From an uncultured bacterium (GTDB lineage Bacteria; Desulfobacterota; Deferrimicrobia; Deferrimicrobiales; Deferrimicrobiaceae): 64,000 bases of DNA. The position numbers and the translations under genes are program-made. The stretch is from NCBI GenBank assembly GCA_963741515.1, contig CAVUIA010000004.1:67-64066 (forward strand), given 5' to 3'. This document shows positions 23,980 through 34,017 of the stretch, in pieces (within the stretch, counting starts at the first letter, position 1; each line of letters begins with the position of its first letter). The notes below the pieces were generated by a model. It had not been told where the DNA came from, made no database searches, and saw nothing but the letters and a program-made list of their open reading frames with translations.

Positions 23980-23991
23980 GGCGGGGGGAGT
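23980..23991. repeat. copy of the ssrA 3'-end core (GGCGGGGGGAGT; 15/16 match with ggacggcggggggagt) inside an AT-rich intergenic region
   Basis: Compare plus-strand 33671-33685 ggaggcggggggagt. Same orientation as ssrA. Confidence 0.4.
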
Positions 23992-24132
23992 GGGGCTAAT
24001 GTATAACTCATTTAATTACTTGATTGATTATGCGATATAATTCCGACTGCCCCCAAATCGTACCCCCTGGAATCGCGAATACCGGACATGCGCGCTCTCC
24101 CCCGAGGATTTTTCACAGGATCCGGTTGACGC

Positions 24133-24609
24133 CTACCTGGCCTCCTTCTTCCTTTGCGTGATCTCGCTGATGTTATCGATCGCGGACTTCAACTCCCGGT
24201 TTTCTTTTTCCAGCCCGGCATTCCGTCCTTTCAGGTCATCCAACTTGGTCTGGAGCCCTTGCAGGTCGGCTGCCCGCTTTTCCGCATCGGTTTTCCCGGT
24301 TCTCAACTCCACCAGGGAACGTTCCAGCCCCGCCTTTTCCTGAAGAGCGCCCTCCAGCTGCCCCTTCAGTTCCCGGTTCTCCTTCCGGACCGTTTCCGCC
24401 GCCTGTATCTCGGTCCTGGCCGCCTCGATCGATGCGACAAGATCCTTGTCCCGCTTTTCGATCCGGGCCACTTCTTCCCCCAGCGTATGCAACAGCTGTT
24501 TGATATCGACCTTTCCTTCGCCCTTGGTTCCCCAGATCAGGTATCCCCCGAGCAGTCCCGCCGCAAGGCTCAATGAAATGACAGCGATGACGACCTTATA
24601 GCTCTTCAT
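24133..24609 (-). CDS. membrane-anchored coiled-coil protein, function unknown
   Basis: N-terminal TM segment, then a heptad-rich, E/K/L-rich sequence of 158 aa. Confidence 0.55.
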   Translation of the reverse strand: MKSYKVVIAVISLSLAAGLLGGYLIWGTKGEGKVDIKQLLHTLGEEVARIEKRDKDLVASIEAARTEIQAAETVRKENRELKGQLEGALQEKAGLERSLVELRTGKTDAEKRAADLQGLQTKLDDLKGRNAGLEKENRELKSAIDNISEITQRKKEAR

Positions 24610-24633
24610 TTCCTCACCCCCGTGGAATCGTGC

Positions 24634-25740
24634 TCAGCTGCGCGGCTTGTCCGCATGCCCTCGAGCGGCCGATTCGTGAACATGATCTTCCAGGCCCAAC
24701 TCGCCGGATTTTTGTTCCAGGACCTCGAGACGCTTACGGGCTTCCTCGATCCGTTTTCTGATCCGCTCCTCCTCTTCTCCGGACGCTTCCTTGAGCGAAC
24801 GCTCCATCTCCTCGATCTTGCCCAACAATTCCCGATTTTCGCTATAGATCTGTTCCGCCTGTTCGGCCTTGTCGAACACGATGTCTTCCACGACAACCTG
24901 CTTCTCCTGCGACATTTCCTGAACCATTACGGGCACGATCTTCCTGTCTTCCGGCAACATGCGCAGATTCCTGAAATCCGGGGACATGATTTCGACGCCA
25001 TCCCGATGCAACACGTCCAGAACGCTCCGGTAGAGATTCGTTCGTGCGGTGATCAGCCATTTCACCTCGGTCAAAACTCCGGAGATGCGGTACGTGATCG
25101 TGAAATTTCCCATCTCCAGGATTTGAACGAACGGCTCATCGAGACCGCTCTCCTTTGCCGCCGTGACGAGAAGCCCTTCCACCCGGGAGTGGTGCACGTC
25201 ATAGCCCAAAGACAGCGTGGCCGAAACGATGGCTCCCGAGCCGCGGATTGCGGTGACGGGGTTGCTGATCAGGAACGAGTTCGGGATGGCGATGAGCTCC
25301 CGGGTTTCGGATTGAATCTCCGTATCGAACAGCCCCCGTTCCGATACGCGCCCGAAATAATCGCCGACGCGGACGAAATCCCCGATCCCGAACGGTTTCG
25401 TCACGCGGAGGAGGATACCGGCCATGAGATTCGAGACGACCGTCGTCGACGAGAACGCAAGGATTCCCGAAGCCAGAAGACCTATCAGCCCTAACAGCCG
25501 GTTGCGGGAGCTCTCGTCTATCGGCAGGGAAAGGATCAGCGCCACCAGGCCGACAAGCGCCAGTCCGATCATCACGATTTGTCGGGGAAACTTGCGTTCG
25601 TCGCCCAGGTTGGCGTGCCGCCCTATGAGAAACCAATGCACACCCCATAGAACCGCGACCACCCCGACCACGACGACCAGGGGTGGGAGAACCGGAATCA
25701 TCGCCTCCAAAACCTTATTCCCGTCCGGCATGGGCTGCAT
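24634..25740 (-). CDS. mechanosensitive ion channel, MscS family
   Basis: TM helices followed by the MscS beta-domain ...GDFVRVGDYFGRVSERGLFDTEIQSETRELIAIPNS... The gene lies 47 nt downstream of atpG and may be co-transcribed with it. Confidence 0.8.
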   Translation of the reverse strand: MQPMPDGNKVLEAMIPVLPPLVVVVGVVAVLWGVHWFLIGRHANLGDERKFPRQIVMIGLALVGLVALILSLPIDESSRNRLLGLIGLLASGILAFSSTTVVSNLMAGILLRVTKPFGIGDFVRVGDYFGRVSERGLFDTEIQSETRELIAIPNSFLISNPVTAIRGSGAIVSATLSLGYDVHHSRVEGLLVTAAKESGLDEPFVQILEMGNFTITYRISGVLTEVKWLITARTNLYRSVLDVLHRDGVEIMSPDFRNLRMLPEDRKIVPVMVQEMSQEKQVVVEDIVFDKAEQAEQIYSENRELLGKIEEMERSLKEASGEEEERIRKRIEEARKRLEVLEQKSGELGLEDHVHESAARGHADKPRS

Positions 25741-25787
25741 CCTTCCTTTCCGCCCCGGAATGTCAGAAATAGTACTGGATGCCGCGT

Positions 25788-26684
25788 TTACTCGGAAAGA
25801 CCCTCACCTATCGCCTCGAAGCCGGCGATCACGTCGAACAGTTCCGCGTCGATGTCGCTCTGGCGCAACCGGTGAAACGTCCCGTTGAGGTCTTCCAGCA
25901 GTTCGTCGATGTTCTTGTCGGCGCGTTGCATCGCCGCCAGGCGGCTTGCGTTCTCGCTGGCGAGCGATTCGGCGCACGCCCGGAACATCGAGACGAAGAG
26001 GTACTCGCGGATGAGCGCCCGCAATGTCTCAAGGTCGCTGCCCATGACCTCGGGCAGTCTCTTCGTCGGCCAGGGAAGCCCGGCCCGCTCACGCAGCCAG
26101 GTGTCGTCCAGCGGCAGCAGCCGCTGATCGACTGTTTCATAACCCGCGGCGGAGACGGGGCGGTTATAGAAGAGATGAAGCTCCAAGACATCCCCCCGGG
26201 TCCGGCGCGAATCGTTTTCCACAAGGATCCTGCCGACGAGCGGGGTGACGGCCTTGACGGAATTCGGCACCGTGAAGAGACCGGCCAGCGGCAATCCGGC
26301 GTCTTTCAGGCGAGCGTGGACGCGCTCCCCCACCGCCCAGACCCGGAGTATCCCGGGCTGACCGGAGAGAGCCTTGACCGCCTCATCCGCCACCGCGTCG
26401 TTGAACCGCCCCACCAATCCCTGGTCGGAACCGAACACGACCGCGTTGACCGCGCCGGCCGCCCCCCGGCTTGCGTTTCCCGTCGACAGGGCATCCGAAC
26501 CGGCGCCGCGGAAACAGACCCCCAACCCGAGTTCCACGGCGCGATAGTAGTCTCCCAAAGCGCGCACCGATTGCTCGTATTGGCTGATGCTCGAGGCCGC
26601 CAGGGCCTTCATCGTGCGGACCACGGACTGGAGATCGCCGGCGCTGTCGATCTTGCGGCGCAGACTCGCGATATTGCTGCTCAT
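25788..26684 (-). CDS. atpG: N-ATPase (F-type) gamma subunit
   Basis: [31 protein letters not shown]... is a gamma-subunit signature. ATGA overlap with atpA. Confidence 0.85.
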
Positions 26685-32541: not shown

Positions 32542-32734
32542 GGTTCCATTATCCGGCGAACGGGCAAGATCCGTCTGTTTTTCTGGCCTGACCCCATCCG
32601 CTCCCGTCAGGGAATACAGGATGAAAGGAAACCAATGCCCGAAATGCGAGGCGGTGATCCCCGGAGAGTTCTGCCCCCCGCGCCGGTTCGATGCGCTTCC
32701 CGTCCCGGGAAATCACGTGCAGGTCATTCCCCGC

Positions 32735-33187
32735 TCAGGTGACCGCTTCCTGTTTCACGAGCAGGATGGAGCAAGGCATCCTGCGGATGATGGTTTCGTT
32801 GATACGCCCGAAGAGGAAGTGCTCGAGCCGGTTCTCCTCGTGGGCCGGCATGAGGAGAAGGTCGATCCTTTCCTCCTCCACCACTTTCCGGATTACGCCG
32901 ATCGGCTCCCCCTTCCGAATCAACTCCTTCACCGGCAACCCTCTCACCGACTCGGCGCGGAGGATCTCTTCCAGGTTTTTCTTCGCTTCCTTGAGCAATT
33001 CCTTGTATTCCTCTCCGACGGACAGAAACGGCAGATTCCAGCCATCCGCCCCGAAGGGGTCATCGTGTACGTGGAGTACCACCAGCTCAGCATCGTACTT
33101 CCTCGCCAGGGAAACTCCGTAACGCACCGTTTCCTGGCTATGCTTGATATCCATGGCCAACACCATAATCCGCCGGATGTCGTTCAT
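32735..33187 (-). CDS. universal stress protein UspA family
   Basis: MNDIRRIMVLAMD...ELVVLHV...; ATP-binding G-x2-G-x9-G(S/T)-like C-terminus. AAGGAGG RBS 7 nt upstream of the ATG at 33187. Confidence 0.8.
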   Translation of the reverse strand: MNDIRRIMVLAMDIKHSQETVRYGVSLARKYDAELVVLHVHDDPFGADGWNLPFLSVGEEYKELLKEAKKNLEEILRAESVRGLPVKELIRKGEPIGVIRKVVEEERIDLLLMPAHEENRLEHFLFGRINETIIRRMPCSILLVKQEAVT

Positions 33188-33404
33188 GTCAGCCTCCTTG
33201 CGATGCAAAGAGTGTCTTCCACTGCACTGTTTCCGTTTTCAAGGAACCTGCACGCGGTGATCGGTCCACCTCCATCTTAATGTGAAAAGCCACTGACCTG
33301 CCCCCGTTTTTCAACCAACAGGATGCGTGGTCGTCAGCGGCCATCCCTGGCCGCTCATCCTCGCTCTTCGCTTGGCGGCGCCCTTGTCGTAATTACCCGG
33401 GTGA

Positions 33405-33421
33405 GCGGGGGGAGTCGAACC
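33405..33421. repeat. 17-nt direct repeat of the ssrA T-arm/acceptor core (gcggggggagtcgaacc), 270 bp downstream of ssrA; att-like scar
   Basis: Identical to 33675-33691. The flanks diverge. The copy does not fold into a tRNA-like T-arm (CAUGG compared with GGGGG). Confidence 0.55.
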
Positions 33422-33594
33422 ATGAGCCTACGCCCAGCCAGGGCTTGCCCCAAGGTATTTCGTCGCGGGGTACCCCAGGGAGCGCAGTTCGTCGGGGAGT
33501 GGGGCCGGCCGATGGGGCGGGGCTCGGGGCTGACGCGCTCCCGTGCGTCGCGCTTTTCCTCCCTATCCGGTCGGCGCCCCTCGCCCGTTCGCCT

Positions 33595-33682
33595 CCCCCC
33601 GCCTCCACCAAGCGCAAAAAAAAGCCGACCATCTCGAATTGAGAGGTCGGCTTACTCGACTGCGCTTGGTGGAGGCGGGGGG
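33595..33682. repeat. perfect 21-bp inverted repeat (CCCCCCGCCTCCACCAAGCGC) formed by the ssrA 3' end and an inverted copy, flanking the ssrA terminator hairpin
   Basis: 33595-33615 is the exact reverse complement of 33662-33682. The 46-bp spacer contains the terminator. Confidence 0.7.
33616..33661 (-). terminator. rho-independent terminator of ssrA
   Basis: Minus strand reads GCCGACC-loop-GGUCGGC followed by U8. Confidence 0.7.
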
Positions 33683-34017
33683 AGTCGAACCCCCGTCCGA
33701 GAATTCTAGCTAAGGGCTACTACGTGCGTTTCCGGTCATTTGGATCTCGTCGTCGGGGACCCCGGCCGGCAGGGTTCCCGTCTGACCATCCCGGCTTGAA
33801 TTTCGCCTTACGGCCCCCCGGGAGGGAGCTTGGGGCTATCCCGTAACGGTGACCCCCTTGCGCTTATACGGGCATTCAGCGGTCGGAGGCAGGCAGCTAA
33901 GCTGCCTGAGCTAACGGATAGTCGTTGGCGACTATTGGTTTCCCGTTTTTACGAGGTTCAGGGCCTCGGCACGCAACCCAGAAGCGTCGACATCCCCGTC
34001 GAAACCGTTTCGCCCCC
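33667..34017 (-). ncRNA. ssrA: tmRNA (SsrA); predicted tag peptide ANDYPLAQAA
   Basis: 5' end GGGGGCGAAACGGTTTCGACGGGG. 3' end GGACGGGGGTTCGACTCCCCCCGCCTCCACCA. Tag reading frame gcc aac gac tat ccg tta gct cag gca gct tag. smpB is adjacent. Confidence 0.85.

Follow-up and report, generated by a model that had tools for sequence, protein, structure and literature searches.

A probable decayed island with an N-ATPase operon beside the tmRNA gene of an uncultured Deferrimicrobium-like bacterium

How did a nine-gene N-ATPase operon come to lie behind ssrA, the gene for transfer-messenger RNA (tmRNA), in an uncultured bacterium of the family Deferrimicrobiaceae? The DNA in question, a stretch of 64,000 nt from contig CAVUIA010000004.1 (the whole of which we call the window), had previously been interpreted from its letters; this sequence-only reading placed a decayed or nested island of ~9.7 kb, carrying the operon, between two direct partial copies of the ssrA 3′ core. 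Comparison with related loci shows that the suspected phenomenon is real and well supported, both by a hotspot at ssrA and by the absence of the DNA from relatives, whereas the boundaries and the roles given to both repeats are not. Our analysis suggests that the proposed block is probably the ssrA-proximal part of a larger accessory segment of ~17 kb (16269–33333) in the slot behind ssrA, which would be a fixed, decayed island or island array.

We fetched related loci, each coded L with a number, through SmpB searches of genomes and metagenomes, which yielded more than 25 loci from Deferrimicrobium-like bacteria, a group placed in candidate phylum MBNT15 (PMC9386147). Among relatives represented by a long contig, L127 is the closest (SmpB 96%, DNA ~93% identical), and the flank downstream of ssrA is readable in L002, L004, L005, L007–L009, L127, L128, L134, L141 and L143–146. 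Upstream, the order dNK-panB-(panC)-panD-amidohydrolase-smpB-ssrA is kept in all relatives (>25 loci), with smpB (34189–34683, − strand; Pfam SmpB 9e-58) as its final gene before ssrA itself (33667–34017, − strand; ARAGORN; Rfam RF00023, 181.5 bits). The tmRNA gene is intact in the window and encodes the tag ANDYPLAQAA; its final 25 nt are identical across all relatives, and this 25-nt core, which may be common to many bacteria, is also present in 27 viral contigs.

Past the terminal CCA of ssrA, the DNA differs from lineage to lineage and is usually low in guanine-plus-cytosine (GC) content, at 0.50–0.59 compared with 0.66–0.68 upstream. In L002, a P4-type tyrosine integrase gene (Arm-DNA-bind_3, Phage_int_M and Phage_integrase domains) begins 123 nt past ssrA and is accompanied by defence-like genes; elsewhere ssrA is followed by AAA_13, HNH and C5 methylase genes (L004), insertion sequences (L005, L007), STAND-TPR and SIR2 genes (L008), or HicAB and other toxin-antitoxin pairs (L141, L143–146). 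L004 further contains a textbook far-end repeat, where an AT-rich island closes in ATGATTCGACTCCCCCCGCCCCACCAA before GC-rich DNA sets in. These observations bear out the proposal that ssrA is an integrase target, and show its 3′ end to be an active integration hotspot in this clade. Since contigs with identical SmpB carry different DNA past the CCA (L134–139 vs L140), and six contigs break no more than ~60 nt from the ssrA 3′ end (L001, L012, L131, L132, L139, L140), the site appears to be polymorphic for island presence or absence in present-day populations. One of the two types represented by L140 and L134–139 carries the sequence that precedes the integrase in L002.

Where does the inserted DNA of the window begin and end? 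L127 aligns to the window as far as 33666/33667, the 3′ end of ssrA, resumes at 16207–16128, and continues in katG (7607–5299) and then in an RNB fragment and P-type ATPase gene (4064–1). The 80 nt at 16128–16207 (− strand) are left over from the 3′ part of a DUF1232 gene, which similarity to relatives identifies as the ancestral neighbour of the slot; the remnant is 86% identical to L127 11028–11107 and 85% identical to L143–146, genomes in which the gene is intact. In L141 and L143–146 (SmpB 87–88%), ssrA is followed by trailer units (see below), ~3.7 kb of toxin-antitoxin islets, DUF1232, ChrB_N, a 410-aa gene, katG and perR. In L134, conserved genes set in again with Ldh_2, just beyond the left end of the window. 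The interval from ssrA to DUF1232 measures ~10 nt in L127, ~3.7 kb in L143–146 and 17.5 kb in the window, and comparison sets its far boundary at 16208–16268.

Subtracting the conserved trailer leaves 16269–33333 (~17 kb) as window-specific DNA, which holds the UspA gene, the N-ATPase operon, an MscS gene, a coiled-coil gene and the cfa cluster. The island had been taken to end at 23980 and to span ~9.7 kb; because the far boundary by comparison lies at 16208–16268, the inserted DNA also includes the cfa cluster, which is absent from the ssrA–DUF1232 interval of L127 and L143–146. The segment is missing at this site in L127, L141, L143–146, L134, L128, L002, L004, L005 and L007–L009, relatives that span SmpB identities of 81–96%. 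The block at 24.0–33.4 kb is thus indeed missing at the slot in relatives, but as part of the larger missing stretch. None of the window genes of 7.6–33.2 kb lies 3′ of ssrA in relatives with readable flanks, where the first set of relatives was covered for 7–9.5 kb behind the gene, and shared downstream DNA is limited to katG and perR, the 80-nt DUF1232 remnant and, in L127, the RNB/P-type ATPase region.

The copy of the ssrA core closer to the gene is genuine. GCGGGGGGAGTCGAACC occurs exactly at 33405–33421 and, in the same orientation, within ssrA at 33675–33691, far beyond the 0.10 matches expected by chance even with two mismatches allowed; it is part of a direct partial copy of the core, X′ (33397–33421, − strand), which matches 19/25 positions ungapped. 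As proposed earlier, this copy is unable to form a T-arm, its 5′ flank reading CATGG vs GGGGG in ssrA. Its distance from the terminator had been given as 270 bp, which is the repeat-to-repeat spacing; the copy lies ~200 nt past the terminator and 246 nt past the ssrA 3′ end. Together, ssrA and the copy enclose only a 245-bp unit and not the block. Moreover, homology around the copy runs on to window position 33334 in relatives (blastn: L141 11193–11304 matches window 33446–33334 at 85.8%, L144 4841–4887 matches window 33380–33334 at 91%). Because the copy is orthologous in L141 and L143–146, with like flanks on both sides in genomes that lack the block, it predates the block and is not a repeat left by the block’s arrival. 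Variant direct core copies occur in L004, L009, L010 and L128, and foreign DNA begins directly after the secondary copy in L128, L009 and L144; such secondary copies either serve as the proximal island junction or mark where it lies.

The copy at 33405 closes a trailer unit of ~270 bp, consisting in order of terminator, inverted core, G-rich body and direct core copy. The intrinsic terminator of ssrA (33616–33653, − strand) is read from the sequence as a hairpin at 33624–33651 followed by a T-run on the − strand. Beyond it lies Y (33587–33616, + strand), an inverted copy of the ssrA 3′ end and trailer that the earlier interpretation had missed and that a repeat search revealed; its 30 nt match at 97% (29/30 complementary to 33661–33690), and it faces 33661–33690 across the terminator. 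As RNA, 33580–33700 is predicted to form one long hairpin (−90.9 kcal/mol, z = −10.5) with the terminator at its top. A search of Rfam with this hairpin at a lax threshold returned only miRNA-precursor-like hits, which are artefacts, and a weak permuted-tmRNA hit. Y follows the terminator in L004, L009, L010, L128, L134–138, L141 and L143–146, and may work as a structure in RNA or, in DNA, as a site of recombination or binding. Its pairing is kept by compensatory change, the L141 trailer AGCAAGC facing GCTTGCT where the window has AGCGCA facing TGCGCT.

The G-rich body (33422–33586, − strand) has counterparts of 77–86% identity immediately behind ssrA in L004 (where they form three tandem copies), L009, L010, L141 and L143–146; its motif was not found in a scan of viral contigs. 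Behind X′, blastn to L141 and L144 detects a partial second trailer unit (33334–33396, − strand). Units of the same type follow ssrA in the window and in L004, where three stand in tandem, L009, L010, L128, L134–138 (which lack the direct partial core), L141 and L143–146. L127 has lost this ancestral trailer: at L127 11019–11030, the stop codon of the convergent DUF1232 gene follows within ~3 nt of the terminal CCA of ssrA, and terminator and trailer unit are both gone.

At the far end of the inserted segment, directly adjoining the native DUF1232 flank, lies a 45-nt junction motif (16224–16268, − strand) that is present once in the window. In ssrA orientation it reads ACCAAAATTCCGGTTTTGCGGGTAATATTCCGGTATTCGGCTATT, and comprises a palindrome, AATATTCCGG-N5-CCGGTAATATT, followed by CCGGTATTCRRCT; it contains two copies of ATATTCCGGT and ends in GGTATTCGGCT. 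The motif recurs three times in L141 (13613–13655, 14538–14581, 15651–15688) and once each in L143–146 (in L144 at 5918–5955), always 3′ of ssrA and in ssrA orientation; none of the other loci that we fetched contains it. Some 40 nt of the motif do not vary, and the flanks are unrelated on both sides. In L144, the secondary core, HicAB and the motif are followed at once by a displaced copy of trailer, terminator and inverted core, the layout expected of a far-end junction. In relatives the motif marks the ends of islands, sitting at junctions between small gene modules, and it resembles a site for a recombinase or a regulator; a scan of viral contigs returned only chance hits to it, in low-GC contigs.

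The cargo between these ends agrees with what had been described for the block. Pfam and translation confirm a universal stress protein (Usp) gene (32735–33208, − strand; Pfam Usp 5.6e-23), the nine-gene N-ATPase operon (25788–32541, − strand), an MscS-family mechanosensitive channel gene (24634–25740, − strand; MS_channel_2nd 1.4e-15) and a gene for a membrane-anchored coiled-coil protein (24133–24609, − strand), known from its translation, with weak Pfam coiled-coil hits only. Farther out, the cfa cluster (16381–23829; Pfam) encodes two CFA synthases, an amine oxidase, DUF2177, DUF1295, a lipocalin, a chalcone-isomerase-like protein and DUF2878. When we scanned metagenomes with the DUF2878 protein, all hits had at most 43% identity, and they afforded no empty-site comparison, although their loci do reveal the cfa cluster as a self-contained module.

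Within the operon, the Pfam order is atpD-C-Q-R-B-E-F-A-G, with AtpR (PF12966, 6.8e-30), AtpQ and an ATPase_gene1 match (2.7e-16). AtpF, of 266 aa, has an ATP-synt_B domain at residues 10–137 and OSCP at 177–244, and hence a delta-like C-terminus, and a separate delta subunit is missing; a second atp operon is absent from the 64-kb window. N-ATPase c subunits are recognised by a glutamate in both transmembrane helices together with an ES(T)xxY motif (PMC2881411). Here both glutamates are present (LGEGRA, MIESVAIY), and because the motif reads ESVxxY, with valine for the threonine of ESTxxY, Na+ specificity of the predicted c ring is not assured; the ion specificity of a Burkholderia N-type ring is the subject of PMC5376962.

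The operon is a laterally mobile cassette, as had been supposed. Its beta subunit is 84–91% identical to proteins of Nitrospira, Verrucomicrobia, Hydrogenedentales, Trichloromonadaceae and Krumholzibacteriia, a range across phyla to be set against 79–96% for SmpB within the family. In the same database, the best beta-subunit hit reaches 91%, compared with 96% for SmpB and 94% for MetA. Related operons occur on 95 plasmid records, and the closest ones elsewhere have unrelated surroundings; in one case transposases follow, and in another a Usp gene lies nearby. This is consistent with previous work establishing lateral transfer of the whole N-ATPase operon with a GC content that matches the host (PMC2881411).

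Comparison establishes the hotspot, an indel that has one edge at the 3′ end of ssrA, a trailer unit that is conserved, a motif at the far end and the operon’s wide phylogenetic spread. Beyond these, the history of the segment may be reconstructed as follows. Integrases in this clade would use the T-loop and 3′ core of ssrA for recombination, each integration regenerating the gene and pushing older DNA outward, and repeated events combined with deletions would leave partial core copies, duplicated trailers and cargo modules devoid of an integrase. We infer that the segment itself arrived by integrase and that a later deletion took the proximal core copy along with the integrase gene, which in L002 adjoins ssrA. 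UspA, the N-ATPase (ion extrusion), MscS, the coiled-coil protein and the cfa cluster may be read as a membrane, osmotic and ion-stress set, and the cargo would then be a working stress cassette.

Several observations weigh against a decayed island. A significant copy of the ssrA core is lacking at either edge of the window-specific DNA: at the distal edge (16208–16268) the best core match is 12/25, and only the motif end GGTATTCGGCT resembles the left half of the core, while the proximal edge (~33333) falls inside the second partial trailer unit and not at a core copy, so the junction on the ssrA side has been remodelled. By its position only would the motif be a recombination site. Integrase, excisionase and transfer genes are all absent from the window-specific segment; indeed, as had been stated of the block, no integrase is present, and we found no Phage_integrase, recombinase or rve domain in 41 scanned open reading frames (ORFs), which cover nearly all coding sequence of 1–34 kb (ORF 10824–11965 by tblastn only, short ORFs in gaps unscanned). 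Polarity is ambiguous against L127 alone, which has itself lost the ancestral trailer unit. The bulk GC of the block, 0.59–0.69, is host-like, although this is not evidence against transfer because the GC of the operon tracks that of its host (PMC2881411). Finally, the cysE to metA region (7.6–16.1 kb) is a translocated core cluster, 94–95% identical to L122, where it has other neighbours; because this cluster was relocated, ordinary rearrangement has also altered the region, and the block could have come in that way.

Could the block between 23980 and 33405 instead be a discrete island of 9.4–9.7 kb, with 23980 as its far-end repeat? A tandem version of this idea would make it the youngest island, accreted before an older cfa island that ends at the 16.2-kb motif. 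The match in question (23980–23991, − strand) comprises 12 exact bases, GGCGGGGGGAGT, and scores 16/25 ungapped against the core. It is rightly oriented and lies in the 303-nt gap that separates the coiled-coil gene from the cfa cluster, an independent module boundary inasmuch as the cfa cluster forms a self-contained module in distant organisms; an AT-rich tract of ~50 nt stands on its island side, as at the true far-end repeat of L004, and tandem arrays exist in relatives (L004, L141, L144) and, according to passages of PMC3146451, in Dehalococcoides. The chance of a score of at least 16/25 in that single gap is ~0.04, but the boundary was picked once the match had been seen, and the figure rises to ~0.2 once every intergenic gap of the segment is counted.

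Across the window, the match is not beyond chance. By chance, the two strands of the window together should hold 1.07 matches of at least 12 nt to the last 45 nt of ssrA, of which 0.45 in ssrA orientation; a second 12-mer of this kind does occur within a gene at 60185, and 12 positions on that strand of the window score at least 16/25 against the core. The T-loop half of the core (TTCGA) is missing at 23980, and the 303-nt gap contains neither the junction motif nor trailer-unit sequence. In Smith–Waterman alignment against all trailer units, the gap scores 26, compared with a mean of 24.0 for random segments of the window, 27.5% of which do at least as well; we therefore rejected the gap as a relative of the unit body motif GGGGAGTGGGGC. 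Nor did we find a genome with the cfa cluster at the site and lacking the N-ATPase block, or the reverse. Hence, of the two short matches on which the original boundaries had been drawn, the 17-mer exceeds chance, whereas the one at 23977–23991, read as a second core repeat, has 12 exact bases and cannot be told from chance by count, 25-mer or Smith–Waterman tests. It is probably a chance match, and we regard a discrete island ending there as rather unlikely. At most, position 23980 might mark an internal boundary where two accreted islands meet, for which the evidence is only suggestive.

Another explanation is that the segment is chromosomal DNA moved beside ssrA by rearrangement, or ancestral DNA lost in the relatives, with the ssrA-like pieces as older leftovers. 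Host-like GC, the missing mobility genes and the want of a clean core repeat at both edges would all fit, as would the adjoining cysE–metA cluster, clearly a relocated piece of core genome, and L127 has demonstrably lost DNA here (trailer unit, perR). However, the segment is missing behind ssrA in all relatives whose downstream flank can be read, across the whole range of SmpB identity, and the far end carries the motif found at island ends. The GC content at third codon positions (GC3) of the block is significantly below that of the conserved side of ssrA (0.804 vs 0.887, p = 7e-5), although the whole 0–33 kb side is lower too. The N-ATPase, moreover, is a known laterally transferred unit whose GC tracks the host, and its best beta hit falls below those of SmpB and MetA in the same database. 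We consider rearrangement or ancestral presence unlikely.

The left-hand neighbourhood has a history of its own. The cysE-metY-cysK-Rrf2-metA cluster (7608–16127) shares 82–88% protein identity with L124, homology to L122 stops at 14787, and in the window the cluster replaces the ChrB_N and 410-aa genes that stand between DUF1232 and katG in relatives; a core metabolic cluster has thus moved into the ssrA plasticity zone. A truncated DsbD-type ORF (15737–16063, + strand) matches profile positions 140–215 of 219 only, and a truncated gene at 3143–4060 (+ strand) is a C-terminal fragment of RNase II/R (partial RNB and S1); the two fragments border rearranged segments. katG is split into 5322–6650 and 6767–7627 (+ strand), with a peroxidase domain in each part, where L144 has a single gene of 758 aa; a frameshift, a pseudogene or a sequencing error are possible. 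A 1.2-kb stretch at 4065–5298, missing from L127, holds perR, which is ancestral according to L143–146, and also a decayed HigB/HigA pair, in which HigB is interrupted by an in-frame stop and HigA breaks off at 4064; perR aside, the stretch looks like another small island remnant.

A further core-like sequence, CGATTCCCACCGCCTCCCCCAA, lies at 4617–4638 (− strand; 19/22, E 0.046) and is borderline. We rejected it as the far edge of a 29-kb island, since katG and perR are ancestral neighbours in L143–146 and the cysE–metA genes are a relocated core cluster.

Returning to the preferred reading of a decayed island or island array, its junction elements permit a bolder, quite improbable extension, in which the trailer unit and the 40–45-nt motif (palindrome plus third half-site) would be working recombination sites for a recombinase acting in trans, forming a cassette-accretion platform anchored at ssrA. 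If so, the platform would capture single genes or operons that lack an integrase of their own, such as, in L141, HicAB, Ysc84 and a hydrolase and, in the window, the stress set of 17 kb, and the secondary core copy would be a decoy attachment site that spares ssrA.

The locus offers a concrete chromosomal context for the spread of N-ATPases, the ssrA slot of an uncultured MBNT15 or Deferrimicrobium-like bacterium, and shows ssrA in a little-studied lineage to be a currently polymorphic hotspot. It also illustrates that a short repeat can point to the right phenomenon yet give the wrong boundaries. Small but testable leads on how islands that lack an integrase persist or move come from the inverted core and the junction motif.

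How does the segment compare with known systems? Islands in tmRNA genes are reportedly the subject of Williams’s 2003 paper ‘Traffic at the tmRNA gene’. Islander defines genomic islands in tRNA and tmRNA genes as integrated by tyrosine integrases (PMC4383910). Like such islands, the segment targets the ssrA 3′ end and leaves the gene intact, the indel relative to L127 starting at the final base of the gene; partial 3′-end copies lie downstream, an integrase (L002) and a clean far-end repeat (L004) occur at the same site, and close relatives lack the DNA there. Unlike them, the window contains neither an integrase nor a demonstrable displaced ssrA fragment at the far end, and its proximal junction lies within the trailer unit, so that an Islander-type algorithm would not call an island.

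Also among the closest known systems are the tandem ssrA-specific islands downstream of the single-copy ssrA of Dehalococcoides, as described in passages of PMC3146451 and PMC2764846. According to these passages, a high-plasticity region likewise extends past ssrA, with tandem islands delimited by repeats of the ssrA 3′ end; some of these have no integration module and are read as cis-mobilizable or fixed, accretion has been proposed, and the cargo is metabolic and adaptive. There, however, the enzyme is a serine recombinase, DsiB, and the repeat a sharp one of 20 bp, whereas the only integrase encountered here, in a relative, is a tyrosine enzyme of the P4 type, and the repeats have decayed further. 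Of the direct ssrA copies in the window, one is solid (33405), one borderline (4617–4638) and one at chance level (23980), clear arrays being found in L004, L141 and L144. The terminator with its inverted-core unit and the 45-nt motif, which stand at junctions here, are not mentioned in those passages of PMC3146451.

As for the cargo, the operon resembles the N-ATPase of Dibrova, Galperin and Mulkidjanian 2010 (PMC2881411) in gene order, in AtpR and AtpQ, in its long AtpF and two-glutamate c subunit, and in its lateral spread with host-matching GC; it differs in ESVxxY against ESTxxY, and linkage to a tmRNA hotspot is not among the contexts described there. Set beside these systems, the locus is a new decayed instance of a tmRNA-gene island with N-ATPase cargo, together with two conserved elements, the inverted core and the junction motif.

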